DNA from: Clostridia bacterium
GTDB lineage: Bacteria; Bacillota; Clostridia; Oscillospirales; CAG-272
NCBI GenBank assembly: GCA_017415485.1
Contig: JAFQGP010000115.1
Location: forward strand, 8,135-72,134
DNA: 64,000 bases
Direction: 5' to 3'
The number at the start of each line of letters is the position of its first letter. Positions within the stretch are counted from its first letter, which is position 1. A model generated the notes under the pieces. The model saw only the letters and a list, made by a program, of their open reading frames with translations. It did no database searches and was not told the origin of the DNA. The translations under genes and the position numbers were made by a program. This document shows positions 1,413 to 45,001 of this stretch, piece after piece.

Positions 1413-3479
1413 ATGAATAATCTTGATCCAAAATACGAAGCGTTATTTACCCCTTGGAAGGTCGGTAACGTTGAGATCAAAAACCGTATCGTAATGTGCC
1501 CGATGGGCGGAACCTCGCTTTTCGGCTGGTTCGAGCTTGGCGGATGCCATTTCGATAAGGAAGCCGCAAAGCTCTTCCTTGAGCGCGCACAGAACAACGT
1601 TGGTCTTATCATCCCCGGCATCGCACCCCTCCGCGATACTTTCTGGGGCAAGTGGCTCTGGCAGAACCCGAAGATGTTCGAGGACCTCAAGGTCTTTATG
1701 GACGAGATCCACAAGACGGGCGCAAAACTCTTCGTTCAGCTCACCGCAGGCATGGGCCGCTCCTGGGCGATCACCGAGCTTGTTGCTCCCCTTCACAAAA
1801 ACAAATTTACCCGCGCGATCCTCAAGCCCATTCTTGATACCTCGCATGAGCTTGCTTGTCCCTCTCCCCAGCCCTCGCGTTGGGCGCACGACATCATCTG
1901 CCCCGAGATTACGGTTGAGCAGATCCACGAGATCATCGAGGCTTTTGCAAAGACCGCAAAGCTCTGTATGGACGCGGGCGTTGACGGCGTCGAGGTTCAC
2001 GCTGTTCACGAGGGCTATCTCCTTGACCAGTTTGCGATCGAGTTCTTCAACAAGCGTACCGACAACTACGGCGGAAGCTTCGAGAACCGCTACCGCTTCG
2101 CAGTCGAGGTCGTTGATGCGATCAAGAAGGCTTGCGGCAAGGACTTCCCCGTTTCCCTCCGCTACTCAGTAGAGTCCAAGATGAAGGGCTTCTGCGAGGG
2201 CGCAATGCCCGGCGAGGATTACGTTGAGGTCGGACGTAATATGGAAGAATCCGAAAAGGCGGCAAAGTACCTGCAGGATGCGGGCTACGATATGCTCAAC
2301 GCCGACAACGGTACTTATGACTCCTGGTACTGGGCTCATCCGCCTATGTATATGCCCGAAAACTGCAACCTCGAGGACGTTGCACACATCAAGAAGTTCG
2401 TCGAGATTCCCGTTGTTTGTGCGGGACGTATGGATCCCGAGACGGGTGCCGCTGCCATTGCAGAGGGCAAGATCGACGGTATGGGCGTTGCGCGTCAGTT
2501 CCTGACCGACCCCGAATGGATCACCAAACTCATTGAAAACCGCATCGAGGACATCAAGCCCTGCATCTGCTGTCACGCGGGATGCTTTAACTTCTCTTCC
2601 TCGAAGGGTCACGCAAACACCCAGGATCTCACCGACACCATGGGACTTGCACGCTGCGCTCTCAACCCCGAGACTATGCAGTCAAAGAAATATAACATTC
2701 AGCCCGCAAAGAAGGCAAAGAAGGTCGCCGTCATCGGCGGCGGTATCGGCGGTATGGAAGCTGCTATCGTCTGCGCAAAGCGCGGCCACAGCGTAACTCT
2801 CTATGAAAAGTCGGGCGAGCTCGGCGGCGTATTCATCGCGGCAGCTTCTCCCTCCTTCAAGGAAAAGGATCGCGCGCTCATCGTGTGGTACAGAAGAGAG
2901 ATCTCGCGCTACCCCTCCATCACCGTTAAGCTTAACACCGAAGTCACCGACGTCAAGTCGCTCGGTGCGGACGAGGTGATCGTTGCTACCGGTGCCAAGG
3001 CAAAGAGGATCCCGATCCCCGGAGTTGAAAAGTCGATCGAAGCCGTCGATTTCCTCCTCGGCAAGAAGCAGGTTGGCGAAAGAATTGTTGTCATCGGCGG
3101 CGGTCTGACAGGATGCGAGATCGCATACGAGCTCTTCCTTCAGGGCAAGAAGCCCGCGATCGTTGAGATGATGGATGACCTCATCGTCACCCCCGGCATC
3201 TGTCTTGCAAACACCTCCTACCTCCGCGACTGCTTCAAGGCAAACAACCTGCCCGTATATCTCGAAACCGGCGTCAAGGAGATCAAGGACGGCGCGGTAG
3301 TCGTTGCCGACAAGGAAGGCAAGACTTTTGAGATCGAGGCTGATTCCGTCATCCTCTCGGTTGGATATAATCCCGCACCCATCGAAACCAAGGGCGTTCA
3401 CGTCATCGGCGACGCACAGAAAGTCGGCAACCTCCGCTCTGTAATTTGGGGAGCTTGGGACGTGGCAACAAAGATCTGA
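1413..3479 (+). CDS. NADH:flavin oxidoreductase of the 2-enoate reductase / 2,4-dienoyl-CoA reductase type (OYE barrel + Fe-S Cys motif + FAD/NAD(P) domain)
   Basis: 688 aa. OYE-like N-terminus (CPMGG, HEGYLLDQF), Cys cluster CICCHAGC, and two GxGxxG motifs (VAVIGGGIGG, VVIGGGLTG). Confidence 0.85.
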   Translation: MNNLDPKYEALFTPWKVGNVEIKNRIVMCPMGGTSLFGWFELGGCHFDKEAAKLFLERAQNNVGLIIPGIAPLRDTFWGKWLWQNPKMFEDLKVFMDEIHKTGAKLFVQLTAGMGRSWAITELVAPLHKNKFTRAILKPILDTSHELACPSPQPSRWAHDIICPEITVEQIHEIIEAFAKTAKLCMDAGVDGVEVHAVHEGYLLDQFAIEFFNKRTDNYGGSFENRYRFAVEVVDAIKKACGKDFPVSLRYSVESKMKGFCEGAMPGEDYVEVGRNMEESEKAAKYLQDAGYDMLNADNGTYDSWYWAHPPMYMPENCNLEDVAHIKKFVEIPVVCAGRMDPETGAAAIAEGKIDGMGVARQFLTDPEWITKLIENRIEDIKPCICCHAGCFNFSSSKGHANTQDLTDTMGLARCALNPETMQSKKYNIQPAKKAKKVAVIGGGIGGMEAAIVCAKRGHSVTLYEKSGELGGVFIAAASPSFKEKDRALIVWYRREISRYPSITVKLNTEVTDVKSLGADEVIVATGAKAKRIPIPGVEKSIEAVDFLLGKKQVGERIVVIGGGLTGCEIAYELFLQGKKPAIVEMMDDLIVTPGICLANTSYLRDCFKANNLPVYLETGVKEIKDGAVVVADKEGKTFEIEADSVILSVGYNPAPIETKGVHVIGDAQKVGNLRSVIWGAWDVATKI

Positions 3480-3611
3480 CGATCTTTGTTGCAATGAAAT
3501 CCGCCTTCGGCGGGTGAAATCGCGCGTTGCGCGATGAAATCGAGCTTCGCTCGGTGAAATCTTCGCCTTTGGCGAAGGTTTCGGAAGATTTTCTCGCGGG
3601 GCTCGAAAATC
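3465..3611. repeat. Hairpin-train element H1: 12-bp hairpin over the stop codon plus 4-5 GC hairpins separated by the word [AG]TGAAAT
   Basis: GCAACAAAGATC-TGAC-GATCTTTGTTGC, with the TGA stop in the loop. It is followed by aATGAAAT-ccgccttcggcgg, GTGAAAT-cgcgcgttgcgcg, ATGAAAT-cgagcttcgctcg and GTGAAAT-cttcgcctttggcgaag. Confidence 0.85.
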
Positions 3612-10614: not shown

Positions 10615-10657
10615 TTTGCTTTCCTTATTGTATACAAGAAGAATATTTTTCCAAAAA

Positions 10658-11016
10658 GCAAGTGCGAACAAAGCTTTCTGGGTGTCCCCTCATCACCCGC
10701 TGCGGCGGGAGCTTCTCCCAGGAGAAGCCTGGGGAACTGTGAGCTTCGTTTGATATTTCCAATTATTCATTTTTCATTATTCATTTGACCAATTTAGGTT
10801 TATAATGAATAATGAATAATTATTAATTGGCAAGAACACTTTTCTATACAATCGAAACCCAAGTAATATTAATTAACAAATTACATTCATTACTAATAAC
10901 GATAAGCTTCATTTAGATAATTCCAAATGAAGCTAACAGTGACCCCAAGGCTTCTCCTGGGAGAAGCTCCCGCCGCAGCGGGTGATGAGGGGACACCCAG
11001 AAGAATGTGTTAGCAC
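10658..11016. repeat. Long palindromic intergenic element E2 (arms about 95 bp, AT-rich core with a TTATTCA-word inner palindrome)
   Basis: The left arm GCAAGTGCGAACAAAGCTTTCTGGGTGTCCCCTCATCACCCGCTGCGGCGGGAGCTTCTCCCAGGAGAAGCC... recurs as its reverse complement at 10924-11016. The same arm family occurs at 32029 and 34919. Confidence 0.9.
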
Positions 11017-32028: not shown

Positions 32029-32423
32029 AGTGCGAACATAGACGCACTCGGTGTCCCCTCATCACCCGCTACGTCAGAACCCCAAAAACGCGCAAGCGCG
32101 TTTCCGGGAACCCGACGGCTGGAGCTTCTCCCAGGAGAAGCCTAAGGAAAGCTGTCGCTTTGAGCTAAATATTTCTCTGTTAGAGAAATGCTAAATTTTC
32201 GCTATGCAAAAGCTAAATACGCGCTTTGCGCGAGCTAAATATTCCGCCAAAGCGGAATGCAAAGGTAGAAATTTGCCAAGGCAAATTTCAATTTCATTTA
32301 ATTAATGATACGAATATTAGACAATACCAAACGAAGCTCACAGTAACCCCAGGCTTCTCCTGGAAGAAGCTCCCTCCGCAGAGGGTGATGAGGGGACACC
32401 CAGAAAGCTTTGTTCGCACTTGC
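32029..32423. repeat. Long palindromic intergenic element E4 (E2 arm family) with a central GCTAAAT hairpin train
   Basis: The arms GGTGTCCCCTCATCACCCGC...GGAGCTTCTCCCAGGAGAAGCC pair with their reverse complement at 32345-32423. The core at 32162-32292 has 5 hairpins separated by GCTAAAT. It is about 90% identical to E6. Confidence 0.9.
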
Positions 32424-34918: not shown

Positions 34919-35285
34919 GCAAGTGCGAACAAAGCTTTCTGGGTGTCCCCTCATCACCCGCTACGTCAGAACCCCAAAAACGCGCAAGCGCGTTTCCGGG
35001 AACCCGACGGCGGGAGCTTCTCCCAGGAGAAGCCTAGGGAGTCTAACGCCTTGAGCTAAATATTTCTCTCTTAGAGAAATGCTAAATTTTTGCTATGCAA
35101 AAGCTAAATTCGCGCTTTGCGCGAGCTAAATATTCCGCTAAAGCGGAATGCAAAGGTAGAAATTTGCCAATGCAAATTTCAATTTAATAAATAATTCGAA
35201 GATTCGAGAATTCCAAACGAAGCTCACAGTAACCCCAGGCTTCTCCTGGGAGAAGCTCCCGCCGCAGCGGGTGATGAGGGGACAC
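34919..35285. repeat. Long palindromic intergenic element E6 (near-copy of E4, same orientation)
   Basis: Same arms as E4, and the same GCTAAAT hairpin train at 35053-35183. Confidence 0.9.
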
Positions 35286-35352
35286 CGTTTGTGCCCAATG
35301 AACACAAGTGAATATTCACTTTAACGATAAAAATTAATCAAGGAGTCCCAAA

Positions 35353-38532: not shown

Positions 38533-38844
38533 AATGCAAAATGTAGGTGAATTTTCTCGCTTCGCTCAAAAATTTTCATTTGAATACAAGCAGCTTAAAG
38601 TTTTGATCGAACTTTTTCAAAAGTTCGCAGAGCTCGAGACAGCGTCTCGATTCAATGCAAAAGCTTCAGCTTTTGCCTCCGTGCTTCAAAATGGCGAAGC
38701 TTCGCTTCGACATTTTGGACAGAGTCAATACTTCCCGATTGTAGGGAAGTGCAGCTCTTGCGGTTTTCCGAAGGAAAATGGAGGCGTAAGCCGAGAAGCA
38801 AGAGTTGCAACTTGCCGTAGGCAAGTATTTGCGCTCTGTCACCC
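38521..38844. repeat. Structured repeat H2 (left module, copy A)
   Basis: It begins with (C/T)AAAATG x3 across the murQ stop. Positions 38549-38844 are homologous to 42879-43101, and the module ends GCGCTCTGTCACCC. It carries extra hairpins inserted at 38755-38830. Confidence 0.85.
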
Positions 38845-38904: not shown

Positions 38905-39114
38905 ATGAAAAAGAACCTTATCTGGAACATTATCTTAATAATCGGCATCATCCCTTTCATACTTCCGTTCGCTTTCGGCATATACAAAATTTCGATCGAA
39001 AGCTGGACGATGTTCGATTGGCTCGTTATGTACTCGTACATTTTTTGGCCCACTTATATCGTCGGCGCGGTAGTTATCGCGATTTCGATCATTGGAAGAT
39101 TCATAAAAAAGTGA
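38905..39114 (+). CDS. Small hydrophobic membrane protein (69 aa), the AT-rich cargo of element copy A
   Basis: MKKNLIWNIILIIGIIPFILPFAF..., with 2-3 TM segments. AT-rich codon usage unlike its neighbours. The stop lies inside the first hairpin of H3. Confidence 0.5.
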   Translation: MKKNLIWNIILIIGIIPFILPFAFGIYKISIESWTMFDWLVMYSYIFWPTYIVGAVVIAISIIGRFIKK

Positions 39115-39275
39115 AGGAGCAAAACCTCCCCGCGGGGAGGTTTTACTCCTTCCAAACAGCCTGCGGGGCGCAGTCTGTTTGAAGCGCAAGGGAATTTCGC
39201 CCTCTGCGGAGGGCGACTTAAGGCTCTGCCTTAAGAAACCGCAACCTTTTGAAAAAGGTTGACCAAAACTTTGAT
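39111..39275. repeat. Structured repeat H3 (right module, copy A)
   Basis: GTGAAGGAGCAAAACCTCCCCGCGGGGAGGTTTTACTCCTTC... contains five hairpins and is homologous to 44837-45001 with compensatory stem changes. Confidence 0.9.
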
Positions 39276-39295: not shown

Positions 39296-40630
39296 ATGAA
39301 AACACAATTTCAAGCTAAAATTGAAGAGATAACCGCCTCCGCGATCCCGATGCATATGCCGGGGCATAAGCGCAACACAGCGCTGCTCGGCGACGATCTT
39401 CCCTACTCCGTTGACCTCACCGAGATCGACGGCGCGGACGATCTGCACGATCCCGAGGAAGGCGGCATTATCGGCTCGCTCTGCGAAAGATTTGCCTCGC
39501 TTTACGGCGCAAGATCGGCGCATCCCCTCGTGAACGGCTCGACCTGCGGCATCCTTGCGGGCATCCGAACGCTGACCAAGCCGAACGATTCCGTCATCGT
39601 CGCGCGCAACTGCCACAAATCGGTCTGGCACGCGATCGAGATCTGTCGCCTCAATCCCACCTGCATCCTCCCGCCCATCACCCCGGAGCACGGCATCTGC
39701 GGCGCGATCACGGCTGAGGCAGTCGAAGACGCATTTGTGCTCTCGGGCGGCGCGACTTGCGTGATCCTCACCTCGCCTACATACGAGGGCGTGATCTCGG
39801 ATATCGACGCGATTGCGGAAGTATGCAAAAAGTACAATGCCGCGCTCTTCGTCGATGCCGCTCACGGCGCACACCTCGGATTTTCGAAACACTTCCCCGA
39901 CTTCCCGCGAGGCGCAGATATCGCCGTGACAAGTCTGCACAAGACCCTCCCCGCGCTGACGCAGACCGCGCTCGGACTCGTTTTCAACGATAAATATTCC
40001 TCCGCCTACGCGCGCAATCTCGGCATCTTCGAAACGAGCAGTCCTTCCTATATATTAATGAACTCGATCGCAAAATGCGCCGATATCCTTTCGGACTGCC
40101 GCGAGATGTTCGATAATTACCGCGCGATGCTCGATGACTTTTACGCCTCGACAAAACCGCAAATGCTCTCGCTCATCAAAACCGATGACATCGGCAAGAT
40201 TTCGATCTCAACGAGAAATACGACCTTCACCGGCAGCTCTATCGCAGATGCTTTGCGTAACAGATTCCGCATCGAGCCTGAAATGGTGCATTCGGATTAT
40301 CTCCTCTGCATGACCTCGATCTGCGACACCTCGGAGAATCTTTTCGCCCTCTCTCGCGCGATCATGGAGCTTGACGGGGAGGCTGAATGTTCGGAAGGCA
40401 GAACTTATCCCTCCTTCATCACCGAGCTGCCGCCCGTAGAGATCCCGCTTACCGACGCGGTCTGGCTCGATCTTCCCGACGGCGGCGAGGTCTCAAACGC
40501 CTACGTTTGGGTCTATCCCCCCGGCGTTCCCCTGCTTCTGCCCGGCGAAAGAGTCACCGAGGAAATAAAAAATCACCTCGAAATGCTGAAAAATTCGGGG
40601 ATTTCGCCAAAAATCATCAAAACCTCTTGA
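39296..40630 (+). CDS. PLP-dependent Orn/Lys/Arg decarboxylase-family protein
   Basis: Start at MKTQFQ (ATG 39296). IPMHMPGHKR is the family hallmark, and SLHKTLP provides the PLP lysine. Confidence 0.8.
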   Translation: MKTQFQAKIEEITASAIPMHMPGHKRNTALLGDDLPYSVDLTEIDGADDLHDPEEGGIIGSLCERFASLYGARSAHPLVNGSTCGILAGIRTLTKPNDSVIVARNCHKSVWHAIEICRLNPTCILPPITPEHGICGAITAEAVEDAFVLSGGATCVILTSPTYEGVISDIDAIAEVCKKYNAALFVDAAHGAHLGFSKHFPDFPRGADIAVTSLHKTLPALTQTALGLVFNDKYSSAYARNLGIFETSSPSYILMNSIAKCADILSDCREMFDNYRAMLDDFYASTKPQMLSLIKTDDIGKISISTRNTTFTGSSIADALRNRFRIEPEMVHSDYLLCMTSICDTSENLFALSRAIMELDGEAECSEGRTYPSFITELPPVEIPLTDAVWLDLPDGGEVSNAYVWVYPPGVPLLLPGERVTEEIKNHLEMLKNSGISPKIIKTS

Positions 40631-40695
40631 CAAATGCGCCAAAATCATTTATACTATATAGTGCATATTTAATAATCGAAAGGTGGAATTTTATT

Positions 40696-40842
40696 ATGAA
40701 GAGAATTCGTACTATCAATACTCGTGACCTCAAGGCTTCCGTTAAGAACGGCGGATGCGGCGAGTGCCAGACCTCCTGCCAGTCCGCTTGCAAGACCTCT
40801 TGCGGTGTTGCTAACCAGGCTTGCGAGAAAAAGGCAAAGTAA
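40696..40842 (+). CDS. scfA: SCIFF (six-cysteines-in-forty-five) ranthipeptide precursor
   Basis: 48 aa: MKRIRTINTRDLKASVKNGGCGECQTSCQSACKTSCGVANQACEKKAK. AGGTGG RBS. It was embedded in a longer track ORF. Confidence 0.92.
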   Translation: MKRIRTINTRDLKASVKNGGCGECQTSCQSACKTSCGVANQACEKKAK

Positions 40843-40844
40843 GT

Positions 40845-40879
40845 AAAATAAGCCGCCGCAAATAGCGGCGGCTTATTTT
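40845..40879 (+). terminator. Terminator/attenuator hairpin immediately after scfA
   Basis: AAAATAAGCCGCCG-caaata-GCGGCGGCTTATTTT. Confidence 0.75.
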
Positions 40880-40880
40880 G

Positions 40881-41090
40881 CGATATAGATCCTTGCGGAT
40901 CTGTGATATACGCAGAGCGTGCGATATACCTTCGGCACGATATGCCCCTTCGGGGCGTGATTTCACGTTCGCCTTCGGCGAACATATCGTATCGCGCTTT
41001 GCACGATATATCGTACTGTTTGCCAAAGGCAAACAGTATATCGTATGAGCATAGCGAATATATCGTGTTTACTAAATAAACGAGGTTAAC
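40881..41090. repeat. Hairpin-train element H4 (word CGATAT / ATATCG, overall palindromic)
   Basis: About 9 GC hairpins (gatccttgcggatc, gccccttcggggc, gttcgccttcggcgaac, actgtttgccaaaggcaaacagt ...). The spacer is (G)CGATAT(A) in the left half and ATATCGT in the right half. The centre is cgtgatttcacg. Confidence 0.85.
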
Positions 41091-41092
41091 CG

Positions 41093-41464
41093 ATGAATAA
41101 TATCACTATACGCGAATTAGCAGTAGAATTGACCGTTGAAATTACGCAAATATGCGATAATATCAAAGGAAGAAGCGTTTTCATAAATCAAATTTTGAGA
41201 TCCTGTTCTTCCATCGGAGCAAATTCCGCAGAAGCCAAATATGCACAAAGTTCCGCAGACTTCATTCACAAATTGGAAATCTCACTCAAAGAATGCTATG
41301 AAACCGATTATTGGCTTGAAATCCTTTATAAAACCAATTCAATGGATAAAGAAACATATATAAGATTGTTAAATAAATGCGGTTCTATTCGCAGAAAGCT
41401 TATTGCCTCCATAACAACGGCAAAAGCAAATTCAGAACAGCAATCCGGAGGTACAACAAAATGA
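41093..41464 (+). CDS. Four-helix-bundle protein (23S rRNA intervening-sequence protein family, PF05635/TIGR02436)
   Basis: 123 aa. Contains ...QILRSCSSIGANSAEAKYAQSSADFIHKLEISLKECYETDYWLEIL. AT-rich. Its stop overlaps the scfB ATG (ATGA). Confidence 0.85.
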   Translation: MNNITIRELAVELTVEITQICDNIKGRSVFINQILRSCSSIGANSAEAKYAQSSADFIHKLEISLKECYETDYWLEILYKTNSMDKETYIRLLNKCGSIRRKLIASITTAKANSEQQSGGTTK

Positions 41465-42843
41465 TCCATTCCTATAAACTTGGCGGTTACAATATCGTCC
41501 TTGACGTCGGCTCGGGCGCGGTGCACGCGGTTGATGATCTTGCCTATGACGTCATAAATCTCTACGAAACCAAGTCGGCAGACGAGATCGTCTCGGTCTG
41601 CCTTGAAAAATTCGCCTCCGAAGGTATCACCGAAGAGGACATCCGCGACACGATCTCCGACGTTGAAGAGCTCAAACAGAGCGGCAAACTTTACGCCGAG
41701 GATATCTATGCGCCCCTCGTCGGCAAGCTCAAGAACAATTCCAACATCGTCAAGGCACTCTGCCTGCACGTCGCGCACACCTGCAACCTCAACTGCGAAT
41801 ACTGCTTCGCGGCACAGGGTCGATTCCACGGCGAACGCGCCCTGATGTCATTTGAGGTCGGCAAGCGCGCGCTTGATTTCCTTGTTGAAAACTCGGGAAC
41901 CCGCCACAATCTTGAAGTCGACTTCTTCGGCGGCGAGCCGCTGATGAACTGGCAGGTCGTCAAGGATCTCGTTGCCTACGCGCGCTCGATCGAGGAAGCC
42001 GCAGGCAAGCATTTCCGCTTCACGCTGACGACAAACGGCGTGCTGATCGACGACGACGTCATTGATTTTGCCAACAAAGAGATGGACAACGTCGTTCTCT
42101 CGCTCGACGGCAGACGCCACGTGCACGACAACCTCCGCAAAACTGTGAACGGTCAGGGCAGCTATGACCTGATCCTTCCGAAGTTCAAGGAATTCGTCAC
42201 CCGCCGCGGCGACAAGGGCTACTATATGCGCGGTACATACACCAAGTTCAACACCGATTTCTGCTCCGACATCATCCACATGGCTGACGAAGGCTTTACC
42301 GAGCTTTCGATGGAGCCCGTAGTCTGCCCTCCCGGCGACCCCTACGCACTCGGCGACGAGGATCTGCCCGTGCTTTACGATCAGTATGAAAAGCTCGCCT
42401 TTGAGATGATGGACCGCAAGAAGCGCGGCAAGCCGATCACCTTCTATCACTATATGCTCGACCTTGAGGGCGGCCCCTGCATCTACAAGAGAATTTCCGG
42501 CTGCGGCTCGGGCACCGAGTATATGGCTGTCACCCCTTGGGGCGACCTTTACCCCTGCCATCAGTTCGTCGGCGACGAAAAATACCTCCTCGGCGACATC
42601 TGGAAGGGCGTAACGAACGACGCCATCCGCGACGAATTCCGCTCCTGCTCGGCATATTCGAGAGAGGAATGCCGCGACTGCTGGGCCAGACTCTACTGCT
42701 CCGGCGGCTGCGCCGCGAACTCCTACCACGCAACCGGAAGCGTAAACGGCGTTTATGAGTACGGATGTAAGCTGTTCAAGAAACGAATCGAGTGCGCGAT
42801 CATGCTGAAGGTCGCGGAATCCCTCGAAAACGAAGAAGAATAA
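41461..42843 (+). CDS. scfB: SCIFF radical SAM/SPASM maturase
   Basis: Start at MIHSYKLGGYNIVLDVGSGAVHAVDD. CNLNCEYC radical-SAM motif and a Cys-rich SPASM C-terminus (CRDCWARLYCSGGCAANS). Confidence 0.92.
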   Translation: MIHSYKLGGYNIVLDVGSGAVHAVDDLAYDVINLYETKSADEIVSVCLEKFASEGITEEDIRDTISDVEELKQSGKLYAEDIYAPLVGKLKNNSNIVKALCLHVAHTCNLNCEYCFAAQGRFHGERALMSFEVGKRALDFLVENSGTRHNLEVDFFGGEPLMNWQVVKDLVAYARSIEEAAGKHFRFTLTTNGVLIDDDVIDFANKEMDNVVLSLDGRRHVHDNLRKTVNGQGSYDLILPKFKEFVTRRGDKGYYMRGTYTKFNTDFCSDIIHMADEGFTELSMEPVVCPPGDPYALGDEDLPVLYDQYEKLAFEMMDRKKRGKPITFYHYMLDLEGGPCIYKRISGCGSGTEYMAVTPWGDLYPCHQFVGDEKYLLGDIWKGVTNDAIRDEFRSCSAYSREECRDCWARLYCSGGCAANSYHATGSVNGVYEYGCKLFKKRIECAIMLKVAESLENEEE

Positions 42844-43101
42844 GTTGCTAGTTGCTAGACGCTAGTTGCTAGTTGAAGGTTAATTTCCGCCCTGATCGGG
42901 CGGAAATTTTCATTCTAATTAAAGAGCAGGAAAGTTTTCGTCCACCTTTTTCAAAAGGTGGCGGAGCACGAGGCAGAGCCTCGGACTAATGCGAAAGCTT
43001 CAGCTTTCGCTTCTGCGCTTCAAAATGACGAAGCTCTGCTTCGGCATTTTGGACAGAGTCAACACTTCCCGAATGTAGGGAAGTGTTGCGCTCTGTCACC
43101 C
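42844..43101. repeat. Structured repeat H5 (left module, copy B)
   Basis: It begins with GTTGCTA-type heptamers x5 directly after the scfB stop, continues with sequence homologous to 38549-38844, and ends GCGCTCTGTCACCC. Confidence 0.9.
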
Positions 43102-43121
43102 CTTATTATTTAATATTCAAA

Positions 43122-43164
43122 GGCACACTTTTCGGTAAAAGCCGATTGGTGTGCCAACTTTTTT
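43122..43164 (+). terminator. Rho-independent terminator (plus-strand T-tail)
   Basis: GGCACAC...GTGTGCC followed by TTTTTT. Confidence 0.65.
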
Positions 43165-43489
43165 ATTCAAGTGAATTCAGATATACTTCAAGCAGTTGCT
43201 TAGCAGTTTCGCGATTCTTCTCAGGGAGTAAATCAACTCGTTCGGCAAGTGTTGCGCCGATTGGCACAATTATCTGATCTTCAACAAAAATATCGTTCGG
43301 AGTAATGCCCAACGCCTCGCATATTCTAAGCACACTCTCGATGCGCATATTAACGCTTCCTCTTTCGATATCAGCGTAAGTGCGATCAGAAAGTCCCGCC
43401 TCCTCCGCAACCTGTGCCTGCGTAAGCCCTTTTTGTTTTCTTATGGCATACAATTTATTTCCTATTTCCATCAAATCAAAAACAAGCAT
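43163..43489 (-). CDS. Small XRE-family HTH repressor-like protein
   Basis: 108 aa. HTH is LYAIRKQKGLTQAQVAEEAGLSDRTYADIERG. AT-rich. It is divergent from a consensus promoter. Confidence 0.8.
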   Translation of the reverse strand: MLVFDLMEIGNKLYAIRKQKGLTQAQVAEEAGLSDRTYADIERGSVNMRIESVLRICEALGITPNDIFVEDQIIVPIGATLAERVDLLPEKNRETAKQLLEVYLNSLE

Positions 43490-43537
43490 CTTAATTCCCC
43501 TTTTTATTATATATAGGAATTATAGCACCATTTTATC

Positions 43538-43566
43538 TTGACAAAAAGGAGTTTCAGTGCTATAAT
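43538..43566 (+). promoter_or_regulatory. Perfect consensus sigma-70 promoter with a flanking inverted repeat (candidate operator)
   Basis: TTGACA (43538-43543), N17, TATAAT (43561-43566). The inverted repeat TTATAGCAC (43519-43527) / GTGCTATAA (43556-43564) overlaps the -10 element. Confidence 0.7.
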
Positions 43567-43608
43567 ATAGGAAGTAAGATTCTTATTTGTTTTCAAGGAG
43601 GTATTACA

Positions 43609-43803
43609 ATGAAAAAATATGTTCTTAATGAATCTACAGGTACGCTACACATTCTCGGTTATTGTACACATTCGACACATAAGTTTGACAATGCAATTAC
43701 ATTCGAAACAGAACAAGAAGCATACAAATTTGCTGGCAAGCATATTAAGCTTTGCAAGCTATGTGAAAGAAAAAAAGAAGCAATCTTAAAAGAACAAAAC
43801 TAA
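43609..43803 (+). CDS. Small Cys/His-containing protein (64 aa), possible zinc-binding
   Basis: AGGAGG RBS. Contains LHILGYCTHSTH ... CKLCERKK. AT-rich. I recognise no family. Confidence 0.5.
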   Translation: MKKYVLNESTGTLHILGYCTHSTHKFDNAITFETEQEAYKFAGKHIKLCKLCERKKEAILKEQN

Positions 43804-43831
43804 TTATGCATTAAAGAAAGGAATATAATCC

Positions 43832-44563
43832 ATGAAAAAATTTATTGCAATATTATTAGCGGTAATTATGTGTTTTTCCCTAGTTTCATGCGGAAAGAAA
43901 GTGGCTTTTGAATTAACACAAAATGCATTTTTTGAGATAAGCAAGTCTGTAGATATTTTGAAGCAGATCAGCAATGACATTATTAGCGCGTGGACGATAG
44001 GTATTTATGATGAATCAACATTAAAACACTATGGTGATGGATTTGATTGGTTATGTGAAAACGTTTCATTATCAAGAGATGATATGCTTGATGGATTAGC
44101 ATATTATAAAAGTCTTGGTATTCAACCCGAATACGTAGAAATTTTATGTGATCCGGAATTAGGATTATATAATGATTATTATGAATACCATAAAGAAGCA
44201 GTACGAAAACTTTATGATATGTATTTCTATACCAGTTATGAGGAAACAGGTATATTAAATGTTTACGATAAAGTGTTCACAGGTTGTGTAATGTTGGTCG
44301 TATACTCTTACGAGGCGAACGGAAAGCTCAGCGAAATCGAACAATCTCTTACATCCGCTGAAACAAAAATCAAAGAATTGAGCAATAAGCATTCAAACTA
44401 TGAGCATTACGAAAACATAAAAGAATATTATTCTACTGCTAGGACTATGTATAATTTCTGCAAATTGCCCACTGGAACATTAGAGCAAGCTAAGAGCAAC
44501 ATAAACGATTATAAAAACACAGCAGATTCGTGTTATAACAGTATGTATTACTTTTTCCAGTAG
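43832..44563 (+). CDS. Lipoprotein of unknown function (243 aa)
   Basis: Lipobox FSLVSCG. AT-rich, helical, Tyr/Glu-rich. Confidence 0.6.
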   Translation: MKKFIAILLAVIMCFSLVSCGKKVAFELTQNAFFEISKSVDILKQISNDIISAWTIGIYDESTLKHYGDGFDWLCENVSLSRDDMLDGLAYYKSLGIQPEYVEILCDPELGLYNDYYEYHKEAVRKLYDMYFYTSYEETGILNVYDKVFTGCVMLVVYSYEANGKLSEIEQSLTSAETKIKELSNKHSNYEHYENIKEYYSTARTMYNFCKLPTGTLEQAKSNINDYKNTADSCYNSMYYFFQ

Positions 44564-44599
44564 ACACTGCAACAAAATTTTCATTCTATGCAGTAAAGT

Positions 44600-44836
44600 T
44601 GACGATATATCAAGAGCCCTCCCGCTTGCGGGAGGGTTGGGAGGGGAGTCAGCGGCGCGCGAAATTTGAGCACCAAAACCAAACTCAAAGCGAAATATAA
44701 TAAAAATGTGAAAATCCGCCGCGGCGGATTTTTCCTTTACGTTCCGCGGTGCGGAACATATCGCATCGCGAAGCGATATATCGTATCCGCAGGATATATC
44801 GCGCCGAAGGCATATCGTGCGCCCTGCGGGCGCAGG
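44600..44836. repeat. Hairpin-train element H6a (ATATCG word)
   Basis: ccctcccgcttgcgggaggg and aaatccgccgcggcggattt, followed by gttccgcggtgcggaac-ATATCGC-atcgcgaagcgat-ATATCGT-atccgcaggat-ATATCGC-gccgaaggc-ATATCGT-gcgccctgcgggcgc. Confidence 0.85.
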
Positions 44837-45001
44837 GTGAAGGAGCAAAAATCTCCCGCAAGGGGAGATTTTACTCCTTCCGAACCGTCGACGGGGCGTC
44901 GCCGGTTCGAAGCACAAGGAAATTTCGCGCTCTGCGGAGCGCGACTTAAGGCTCTGCCTTAAGAAACCGCAAACTTTTGAAAAAGTTTGATCAAAACTTT
45001 T
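44837..45001. repeat. Structured repeat H6b (right module, copy B)
   Basis: Collinear with 39111-39275. Linkers are identical (TTACTCCTTCC, CTTAAGGCTCTGCCTTAAGAAACCGCAA) and the stems differ by paired substitutions. Confidence 0.9.

Follow-up and report, generated by a model that had tools for sequence, protein, structure and literature searches.

The genes of the SCIFF precursor peptide (scfA) and of its radical-SAM/SPASM maturase (scfB) are separated, in the 64,000-nucleotide stretch of Clostridia bacterium contig JAFQGP010000115.1 analyzed here (hereafter, the window), by a structured repeat array and a gene encoding a small four-helix-bundle protein of the PF05635/TIGR02436 family (the bundle gene). 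We consider it fairly probable that the bundle protein and the array are a cognate pair acting on the transcribed leader, and that they form a spreading module that is wedged in the SCIFF operon rather than being a component of SCIFF. This hypothesis follows from three observations: the gene lies almost always after convergent arms of the type of the Gut-1 RNA, the heptamer repeated in these arms switches with the clade of the protein, and the fold is that of a pentamer binding RNA stem-loops. To our knowledge, PF05635/TIGR02436 has no assigned function, and its only functionally understood member is Avd, from diversity-generating retroelements (DGRs). The Gut-1-type array and PF05635, both families of unknown function, are probably partners: they are found paired in over 70 further loci of gut bacteria, the repeats differing with the protein. 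Two long-standing orphans would thus be joined in one testable hypothesis, a cognate pair of protein and repeat array, with natural heptamer classes as built-in controls.

The module between scfA and scfB and its recurrence in Clostridia

The features of the locus are given below, where alleles carrying the module are called filled and those lacking it empty.

40627-40655, + strand: sigma-70-like promoter (TTGACA-17-TATACT) upstream of scfA, with 11/12 consensus matches, the same in filled and empty alleles
40696-40842, + strand: scfA, SCIFF precursor peptide, 48 aa (TIGR03973, 85.6 bits against a cut-off of 50; PF13165, 85.9 against 27)
40845-40879, + strand: native hairpin after scfA, 15-bp stem and 5-nt loop, attenuator or terminator-like; the insert starts at its 3' foot
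40878-41447, + strand: whole inserted module, about 570 nt, from the alignment of filled and empty alleles and the comparison of junctions across lineages
40878-40968, + strand: left arm of the array, a diverged Gut-1-type unit (Rfam Gut-1 match and hexamer positions)
40967-41065, + strand: right arm of the array, hairpins alternating with ATATCG at 40984, 41008, 41038, and 41060
41082-41085, + strand: Shine-Dalgarno (SD) sequence of the bundle gene, GAGG, 7 nt before the ATG; other modules also have a ribosome binding site (RBS) there
41093-41464, + strand: bundle gene, 123 aa, PF05635/TIGR02436 four-helix bundle (Avd-like, "S23/IVS protein"; IVS, intervening sequence)
41447-41451, + strand: SD sequence of scfB, GGAGG, within the tail of the bundle open reading frame (ORF), 9 nt before the ATG, kept in sister lineages
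41461-41464, + strand: ATGA overlap of the bundle-gene stop and the scfB ATG, kept in loci L019, L239, L241-244, and L245
41461-42843, + strand: scfB, radical-SAM/SPASM SCIFF maturase, 460 aa (TIGR03974, 758.9 bits against a cut-off of 425)

Exactly 618 nt separate the scfA stop from the scfB ATG. The first-pass annotation of this DNA had described the gap as holding a hairpin, an ATATCG train, a 123-aa PF05635 gene, and an ATGA overlap, and all of them were found where it had placed them. It was also right that the bundle gene is more AT rich than its neighbors, with a GC content of 0.34 to 0.37 versus 0.55 to 0.60 in scfB and in the decarboxylase gene upstream. The train (40878-41065) consists of small hairpins among four CGATAT-type and four ATATCG hexamers. 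The left-arm heptamers, GCGATAT (40880), (G)TGATAT (40903), GCGATAT (40921), and (A)CGATAT (40937), are each followed by a small hairpin, while the ATATCG of the right arm is the reverse complement of the left-arm motif, and the right-arm hairpin at 41044-41059 has a tandem G.A core. The 253-nt noncoding spacer has a minimum free energy (MFE) of -111 kcal/mol (z = -9.6 versus shuffled sequences), and ATATCG occurs 82 times in the window, versus 43 expected. The train is a somewhat eroded array, with one degenerate left heptamer and a shortened center, and the copy of the sister lineage L241 is cleaner. The bundle ORF ends in a lineage-specific extension of ca. 9 residues (..QQSGGTTK) that passes through the SD sequence of scfB, related proteins stopping about 9 residues earlier.

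The PF05635/TIGR02436 family is very large, with thousands of close relatives in searches. The bundle protein retrieved 2,920 of them, the best 120 being 72 to 95% identical and mostly 113 to 118 aa long. Scanning one genome per GTDB species gave at least 573 loci in several families of Clostridia (67 to 97% amino acid identity), from which we fetched 80 (L numbers designate loci), all in metagenome-assembled genomes (MAGs) of Clostridia from animal guts and 72 of them with a full upstream flank. Four or more CGATAT/ATATCG hexamers, mostly seven or eight, lie within 300 nt upstream of the gene in 64 of the 72 loci, compared with a mean of 0.8 downstream, and over the 80 loci the GC content of the bundle gene averages 0.37 versus 0.45 in the flanks. 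The first-pass annotation had suggested that the gene travels with the hairpin train and that other PF05635 genes should be checked for such trains. They do have them, including in distant clades with other heptamers, so this association stands in the direction from gene to array; it fails in the reverse direction, many arrays having no gene.

The array follows a constant plan of four GCGATAT units with hairpins and then four ATATCGC units with hairpins. This order of left (L) and right (R) units, LLLLRRRR, was found in 34 of 61 loci, and near-variants account for most of the remainder; these full-array analyses were regex- and anchor-based, identical repeated heptamers making automatic alignment ambiguous. 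The shared upstream order comprises, often, an extended -10 element (TGnTATAAT), and then a long variable hairpin, "cag," four tGCGATATa units each with a hairpin, a center, four tATATCGCa units each with a hairpin, the RBS, and the ATG. Because many modules have TGnTATAAT just before the 5' hairpin and the RBS after the last heptamer, the array appears to be a transcribed leader. Its center is the reverse complement of the first unit and the first hairpin arm in 29 of 60 loci under a strict test, and since six different 7-mers are used there, the center covaries.

The hairpin spacers amount to 260 distinct sequences (120 from left arms and 140 from right arms), whose mean MFE is -2.76 kcal/mol in left arms (shuffled, -0.58) and -3.63 kcal/mol in right arms (shuffled, -0.96). 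Stem positions of the left arms are Watson-Crick paired in 77% of the cases versus 28% after shuffling, and hairpins of the right arms with a tandem G.A core and a GNA triloop number 36 on the sense strand and 0 on the antisense strand. In the predicted MFE fold of the canonical leader, the left and right heptamers are paired and nested, over 18 to 24 of their 24 bases.

In 68 of 76 loci, the next gene downstream has the same orientation as the bundle gene, and its start is often no more than 30 nt away. Flanking genes are very diverse, 88 of the 148 ORFs flanking the 80 loci being singletons, and the sole recurrent neighbor is rlmD, which lies upstream in 27 of the 72 loci (TIGR00479, 366 bits). 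A large serine recombinase is found beside two loci and is not general; neighbor clustering of the 148 ORFs gave no recurrent partner enzyme (reverse transcriptase [RT], nuclease, or recombinase). One subtype (type-B) has a conserved 3' segment of about 90 nt that ends in ATATCGaaAGGAG just ahead of the next gene. In 43 of 60 loci, the first heptamer is directly preceded by a hairpin of at least 6 bp, typically 10 to 14 bp. This hairpin is the tRNA terminator in tRNA-linked copies and the scfA hairpin in the window.

In rlmD-linked modules (L020, L028, L040, L044, L051, L052, L054, L063, and L068), the abutting 10- to 14-bp hairpin, at about -40 to 0 from the first heptamer, is built of the last codons of rlmD itself. 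Its 5' arm encodes ..ESLVCL and its 3' arm a tail such as QKQTN followed by the stop, and it varies by lineage with the host sequence. Its appearance suggests that host sequence was duplicated in inverted orientation or that selection for a hairpin at the edge of the array is very strong.

Gut-1-type arms, heptamer classes, and the fold of the bundle protein

Gut-1 (RF01706), reported in 2010 from human gut metagenomes only, was considered an RNA and was linked to neither a function nor a gene (PMC2864571). Its consensus, CAaUGAAAU-hairpin-GUGAAAU-hairpin-GUGAAAU-hairpin-GUGAAAU, has the same unit design as the left arm of the window, which shares its four heptamers and three small hairpins and differs from the consensus heptamer GUGAAAU at two positions (GCGAUAU). 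The left arm (40878-40968) matches Gut-1 over its full length with 40.7 bits (E value, 6e-7), below the gathering threshold (GA) of 50. At this threshold, the only Rfam match over the window was a Gut-1 at 3492, and the array of the locus surfaced only under an E-value threshold.

More distant bundle genes (about 46 to 54% identical) have the same architecture with other heptamers, and their two arms are always complementary. The pairs are as follows.

GCGATAT / ATATCGC: clade of the window
GTGAAAT / ATTTCAC: L099, L100, and L222
GTGATAT / ATATCAC: L223 and L227-232 (after a tRNA gene); L233-238 (after trmO)
GTGAAGC / CTTCAC: L251 and L252

In seven loci (L099, L100, L222, L223, L227, L233, and L236), GTGAAAT or GTGATAT left arms directly upstream of a PF05635 gene reach the gathering score of Gut-1 (50.7 to 72.9 bits). 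The right arm of L100 matches Gut-1 on the opposite strand with 47.5 bits, so the full array corresponds to two convergent Gut-1 units. Our literature searches found no report of an association of PF05635 with heptamer/hairpin arrays or of clade-specific heptamers.

These data bear on whether a generic hairpin repeat, like the repetitive extragenic palindromic (REP) sequences, lies by coincidence beside an unrelated small gene, which is hardly credible. The window does hold several other multi-hairpin repeat families, but they have no heptamer; moreover, this specific array precedes 64 of 72 related genes, versus 0.8 hexamers downstream, and the heptamer changes with the protein clade. Coincidence is thus already contradicted by the array census, by the heptamer-clade data, and by the Gut-1 matches upstream of PF05635 genes.

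Heptamer repeats were also seen near still more distant members of the family. Cyanobacterial-type loci (L226, L254, and L255) have plain tandem heptamers, GTAATTC four or five times, with or without GGAATTT six times, and no hairpin spacers. On plasmid pTS1 of Treponema saccharophilum (L225), purine-rich GTGAAAG/GTGGAAAG units are repeated about 40 times and followed by the pyrimidine complement, again with no hairpin spacers. TTATTCA four times and then TGAATAA four times lie upstream of a distant PF05635 gene in L253, and a tandem run of AAGAAAT-type heptamers, also lacking hairpin spacers, precedes another one in L258. Heptamer repeats may therefore be a family-wide feature of PF05635.

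Tentatively, and with less confidence than for the window, one could extend the proposal to PF05635 "IVS/S23/Avd-like" proteins in general. They would bind heptamer arrays sequence specifically, each clade its own heptamer (GUGAAAU, GUGAUAU, GCGAUAU, and GUGAAGC in Clostridia, GUAAUUC-type in cyanobacteria, and purine-rich GUGAAAG runs in Treponema), and form an RT-independent ribonucleoprotein (RNP) or mobile module that wedges after stem-loops into operons, historically 23S rRNA, with downstream expression preserved. Were this so, the orphan Gut-1 RNA and a very large family of orphan proteins would both acquire a function.

Two groups of loci of the GTGATAT class deserve description. The tRNA-array-bundle locus of L223 (MT835815.1, labeled "Bacteriophage sp.") is the same as on the 2.4-Mb chromosomal contig of L227, which makes the phage label of MT835815.1 doubtful for that region. 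The trmO-linked loci (L233-L238, the P0197 loci, from the human gut) share an identical bundle protein but vary in how many left-arm units they have and contain either one array or two in tandem, with 220 to 690 nt between trmO and the bundle gene. A second PF05635 gene lies about 2.3 kb downstream, in opposite orientations in different samples, suggesting an inversion between arrays.

The bundle protein scores far above the cut-offs of its profile hidden Markov models (PF05635, 81 bits versus 33.8; TIGR02436, 89.2 bits versus 24). Its AlphaFold2 model (mean predicted local distance difference test [pLDDT] score, 92.9) has four helices, at residues 6-21, 28-48, 54-80, and 86-118. Foldseek matched it to BT_0352 (2rld; 42% identical; template modeling [TM] score, 0.79), to Xcc0516 (2gsc; TM, 0.81 to 0.83), and to Avd from a DGR (4dwl) and in the DGR RNP (8ub7), with TM scores of 0.74 to 0.79. 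The matches to 2rld, 2gsc, and 4dwl each include chains up to E, and by analogy with these solved relatives the protein of the window is probably pentameric. The family motif has been given as G-x2-R-x3-S-x3-N-x2-E (PMC3936711); R36, S40, N44, and E47 are invariant in both alignments of the bundle protein, which thus has R-x3-S-x3-N-x2-E. As a pentamer, Avd binds RNA stem-loops about 9 bp long with a GNRA or UNCG loop at the tip; such structures were predicted in 207 of 278 DGRs (bioRxiv 10.1101/2023.10.23.563531). No PADLOC or PHROGs model matched the bundle protein, and its assignment to a defense system or a phage family was rejected on this ground.

Filled and empty SCIFF loci

Both scfA and scfB are canonical SCIFF equivalogs, and with the exception model "not_ScfB" (NF040492) scfB scores 562 bits, short of the cut-off of 855. 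The window allele departs from the direct adjacency of precursor and maturase that is normal for SCIFF loci, with 618 nt and an intervening gene between them. The first-pass annotation had held that the two genes are normally adjacent and had proposed to compare their spacing in relatives, which bears it out. An identical 460-aa ScfB is encoded on three other contigs (L013, L015, and L018) with a 54-nt scfA-scfB spacer, no train, and no gene, and in outgroup SCIFF loci (L246 and L247; ScfB 77 to 78% identical) scfA is followed by a strong terminator hairpin, a spacer of 125 to 223 nt, and scfB, with no bundle gene; unlike these, the locus of the window is split by the module.

The identical bundle protein is found on more than 24 metagenomic or MAG contigs, always in the order scfA-bundle-scfB. 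In the alignment of filled with empty alleles, the flanks and the post-scfA hairpin are identical. After the hairpin, the empty alleles continue with AAATGATATGAGGTAAAAAATG(scfB) and the filled allele with TTGCGATAT, about 570 nt, and then CCGGAGGTACAACAAAATG, with TTATTTTG directly 3' of the 40845-40879 hairpin. The module stands in place of 9 nt of the native spacer, AAATGATAT, and the train and the bundle gene are either both present or both absent. No terminal inverted repeats flanking the bundle gene were found in the filled/empty and cross-lineage comparisons of junctions.

Sister lineages (L019, L239-L244, and also L245) carry bundle proteins 85 to 97% identical to that of the window, with the same tail, between scfA and scfB. 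In L019 and L239-L244, scfB is 9 to 11% divergent from that of the window and the module is at the same position, whereas in the species of the window, where filled and empty alleles are both present, scfB diverges by at most 2.6% between contigs. The insertion suggested by the first-pass annotation is hence upheld by the empty alleles and by the outgroups lacking the module, but it is not recent, since sister lineages with 9 to 11% divergent scfB have the same insert; a recent event was ruled out. Judging from these sequence comparisons, the module is a clade-specific old insertion, which entered the ancestor of this species group and is still polymorphic. The alternative in which the three-gene order is ancestral for this type of SCIFF locus, the compact alleles being simple deletions, is very improbable. 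It could draw on the fact that at least four lineages, with up to 11% divergence in scfB, have filled alleles, and that the empty ones fall within one species (at most 2.6%). Against it, ScfB relatives at 77 to 78% identity have no module, the GC content is still far below the host level, the same module is found in dozens of unrelated contexts, and the empty junction is unlike the product of a simple deletion from the present filled allele. An early insertion with subsequent loss would agree with our explanation.

The strong terminator that had been noted in the gap is a real hairpin, but it does not belong to the insert: it is present in alleles lacking it (L013, L015, and L018) and is therefore native. 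In the consensus scan, the 40845-40879 hairpin was predicted on the + strand as an intrinsic terminator (G+C-rich stem and T-run) with the tail TTATTTTGCG; in empty alleles the tail is TTATTAAATG and the T-run is weaker than in the filled allele. Outgroup SCIFF loci likewise have a terminator hairpin after scfA. The same scan identified the 40627-40655 promoter as the only good match ahead of the whole scfA-module-scfB string and gave no convincing promoter for scfB or the bundle gene within the insert. We infer that scfB is transcribed by read-through from this promoter across the hairpin and translated from GGAGG, possibly in coupling with the bundle ORF. The ATGA overlap and GGAGG are kept in all scfB-linked lineages. 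The earlier suggestion that translation of scfB depends on the bundle gene holds insofar as the overlap exists, but scfB has its own SD sequence, so dependence on translational coupling is possible and not required.

Conservation of the overlap and of an SD sequence inside the bundle ORF across several lineages, together with the persistence of the arrangement through about 10% divergence of scfB, could also mean that the bundle gene was co-opted for SCIFF maturation, as a dedicated regulator or accessory, as the first-pass annotation had proposed. This is improbable. Strains with identical ScfB, as well as outgroup SCIFF loci, do without the module, and no SCIFF-related family model includes the bundle gene. 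A SCIFF locus carries the module in this lineage only, the remaining 79 of the 80 fetched loci lying in non-SCIFF contexts, and tight spacing to any same-strand gene is the general habit of the module. Indeed, a PF05635 member lies between cmr3 and cmr2 (PMC3936711), and a distant one lies between helicase and methyltransferase genes in Dolichospermum. Tight wedging before an arbitrary same-strand gene is thus the normal habit of the family, and the scfB arrangement is not a SCIFF-specific adaptation. The present findings also account for such genes being wedged in operons (cas, restriction-modification [R-M], and SCIFF) and in rRNA. For genome mining of ribosomally synthesized and posttranslationally modified peptides (RiPPs), it calls for caution: a gene between scfA and scfB need not belong to the pathway. 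The SCIFF locus also offers a natural experiment, in strains that have identical ScfB but differ in whether a structured spacer of 570 nt separates precursor from maturase.

An unannotated truncated PF05635 ORF was seen between the type I R-M genes hsdS and hsdR in Monoglobus pectinilyticus (L224; NZ_OY725736.1, 80984-81205). In L245 (GCA_054292565.1, JAZPKP010000062.1), a gene resembling Orn/Lys/Arg decarboxylases is downstream of scfB and not upstream of scfA as in the window; the module-scfB junction is unchanged, indicating that the neighborhood was rearranged around a conserved block. Strains with the same ScfB differ downstream of scfB (a dihydrodipicolinate synthase gene in L007 and a methyltransferase gene in L013), so that this flank is variable too. 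In the window, it holds an AT-rich island (43100-44600; GC, about 0.30) with a helix-turn-helix/Xre-type gene (43163-43489, - strand) and two ORFs (64 and 243 aa) that match no family.

Possible action on RNA or DNA and comparison with known systems

We propose that the module consists of a bipartite array, with about four GCGAUAU units and hairpins and then about four AUAUCGC units and hairpins, followed by the gene of an Avd-like protein of about 115 aa. The protein would bind its own array via the heptamers, the stem-loops, or both, most likely on the leader RNA, as Avd does with DGR RNA. Through such binding, the protein could control its own gene, and any gene coupled downstream, by feedback, and gene-less arms elsewhere in the genome could serve as additional binding sites. 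The leader might switch between a long rod and a beads-on-a-string form in which hairpins evenly space single-stranded heptamers for an oligomeric ring. The module would spread horizontally and tend to land after a stem-loop, just upstream of a same-strand gene. In the case of the window, it would have landed in the ancestor of the species group, after the native scfA hairpin, scfB then being expressed by read-through and from the SD sequence in the bundle tail. Action on leader RNA is favored by the fixed order of promoter, array, and RBS, by the judgment of Gut-1 as an RNA in Rfam, and by the stem-loop precedent of Avd. The identity and conservation of the module, its clade-linked heptamers, its presence or absence among alleles, and the fold are observed; binding of the array, action on RNA, autoregulation, and the manner of movement are proposed.

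Arrays lacking a gene were found in the window itself.

3492-3565, + strand: canonical Gut-1, a solo left arm with four TGAAAT heptamers and three hairpins (Rfam, 75.6 bits against a GA of 50)
44741-44834, + strand: solo right arm of the ATATCG class, four ATATCG with hairpins and no bundle gene

The first lies directly after a 12-bp hairpin (3465-3492) at the end of the upstream gene, about 75 nt before the next same-strand gene, and has no right arm; the second is followed by GAAGGAG and then another repeat family. No further copy of the bundle gene (tblastn) and no further PF05635 gene of any class was detectable in the 64-kb window. When a metagenome collection was scanned for the pattern of three right-arm units, 120 loci were obtained (positive control, 98/101), none of which had a bundle gene beside the match; 86 of them were unrelated tandem repeats or failed the hairpin test. 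The remaining 34 or so look like genuine gene-less arrays (24 solo right arms, 6 L-R, and 4 R-L). Given these and the two solo arms of the window, we rejected the idea that an array implies a gene; only the converse, that a gene implies an array, holds. Rearrangements were seen as well: one array was found with four different right flanks (L110, L119, L206, and L221), permuted R-L arrays occur in L071, L124, and L132, and L041, L053, L089, L095, L052, and L082 have an additional left arm behind the gene. Arrays thus outnumber genes and turn over quickly.

Several of our results weigh against the leader-RNA pair. The frequency of gene-less arrays means that an array can persist without a neighboring gene. 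Binding of the array by the protein is proposed from co-occurrence, from the clade-linked change of heptamer, and from analogy with Avd, and some heptamer classes are represented by 1 to 3 independent loci. The bundle protein is near neutral (pI 8.3) and less basic than the Avd barrel, which is described as "positively-charged" (bioRxiv 10.1101/2023.10.23.563531). G.U pairs number 21 on the sense strand and 6 on the antisense strand of the right arm, versus 5 and 19, respectively, in the left arm, a bias that is opposite in the two arms and unexpected under a simple sense-RNA model. Because complementarity comes automatically with inverted copies of one site, the data fit recognition at the DNA level too. 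Finally, the filled/empty junctions are not clean (TTGC versus AAAT at the left edge) and show no target-site duplication, and the empty alleles may be losses, retained ancestral alleles, or recombinants.

Some of these points would be expected of a selfish element acting on DNA, in which the arms would be single-stranded or cruciform sites for recombination or transposition, the protein a trans-acting helper for their maintenance or mobilization, as in REP/RAYT systems, and any effect on scfB collateral. We regard this as less probable than the leader-RNA pair, though it deserves to be taken seriously. The G.U pairs of each arm on the strand opposite to those of the other, the excess of arrays over genes, the single array with four right flanks, and the permuted and partly duplicated arrays speak for it. 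So do the variation of unit and array copy number among samples with an identical protein, the second PF05635 gene in either orientation, and the solo arms of the window, which have both orientations relative to flanking genes; moreover, a PF05635-bearing IVS of Coxiella was described as a selfish element (PMC4990558). On the other hand, the bundle protein has no recognizable nuclease, recombinase, or HUH motif, neither a target-site duplication nor a clean junction was seen, gene-linked arrays have a fixed orientation between promoter and RBS, Gut-1 was judged an RNA by the Rfam curators (PMC2864571), and Avd, the one member with a known function, binds RNA.

The window also contains heptamer-less intergenic repeats with multiple hairpins, of at least three further families, with copies 79 to 91% identical (38542-38751 and 42874-43085; 39111-39272 and 44837-45000; 32029-32400 and 34922-35286; 10654-10768 and relatives). 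Two of these families have copies on either side of the decarboxylase-scfA-module-scfB block and the AT-rich island, and the hairpin GCTTCTCCCAGGAGAAGC recurs at 10711, 32124, 35016, and 35239.

Compared with known systems, the left arm resembles Gut-1 in its four heptamers and three small covarying hairpins; Gut-1 was described as a stand-alone noncoding RNA, whereas the arm of the window is half of a convergent pair in the leader of a protein gene. The bundle protein resembles other PF05635 proteins in its scores, motif, and fold, and members of that family are wedged in operons and in the IVS of 23S rRNA (PMC3936711, PMC4990558); unlike the IVS members, the gene of the window is not within an rRNA gene. 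With Avd it shares the fold, and Avd binds RNA stem-loops next to its own gene cassette; it is only about 15% identical to Avd, and its RNA partner would be a repeat array and not one stem-loop. No called gene within 6 kb on either side matches an RT Pfam family, nor was there an RT-like recurrent neighbor among the flanking ORFs of the 80 loci, which makes a template repeat/variable repeat (TR/VR) pair with A-specific mismatches unlikely.

REP/REPIN sequences are reportedly short palindromic repeats dispersed in many copies, and RAYT is said to be a single-copy gene, always flanked by the same repeats, that encodes an HUH/Y1 transposase. Many dispersed repeats, a repeat type matching the gene clade, an excess of arrays over genes, and quick turnover are common to these systems and to the module. 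The differences are that the arrays are composite (heptamers and variable hairpins) rather than single palindromes and that the protein of the window matches only PF05635/TIGR02436, has no catalytic motif, and is not an HUH/Y1 (IS200/IS605-like) protein.

The IVSs of 23S rRNA (Coxiella and Leptospira; PMC4990558) differ in that their stem flanks the ORF, lies in rRNA, and is excised by RNase III, whereas both arms of the module are upstream of the ORF, in an mRNA leader; the Rfam scan found no rRNA in the window, where the element lies between two protein-coding genes. They are alike in combining a small PF05635 ORF with long-range complementary segments able to form an extended stem, and in being inserted in a conserved host transcription unit without destroying it, and they are regarded as selfish. 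The MFE fold of the canonical array, which pairs left and right heptamers into a long rod, is reminiscent of the IVS stem.

In the type III toxin-antitoxin system ToxIN and the CsrB/RsmZ-CsrA systems, as proposed for the module, a repeat array either is transcribed beside a small oligomeric RNA-binding protein gene or acts on such a protein. ToxIN differs in that ToxN, which has no homology to the bundle protein, is an endoribonuclease and the repeats are 36-nt direct repeats; the placement of repeats between or on hairpins is what these systems have in common with the module.

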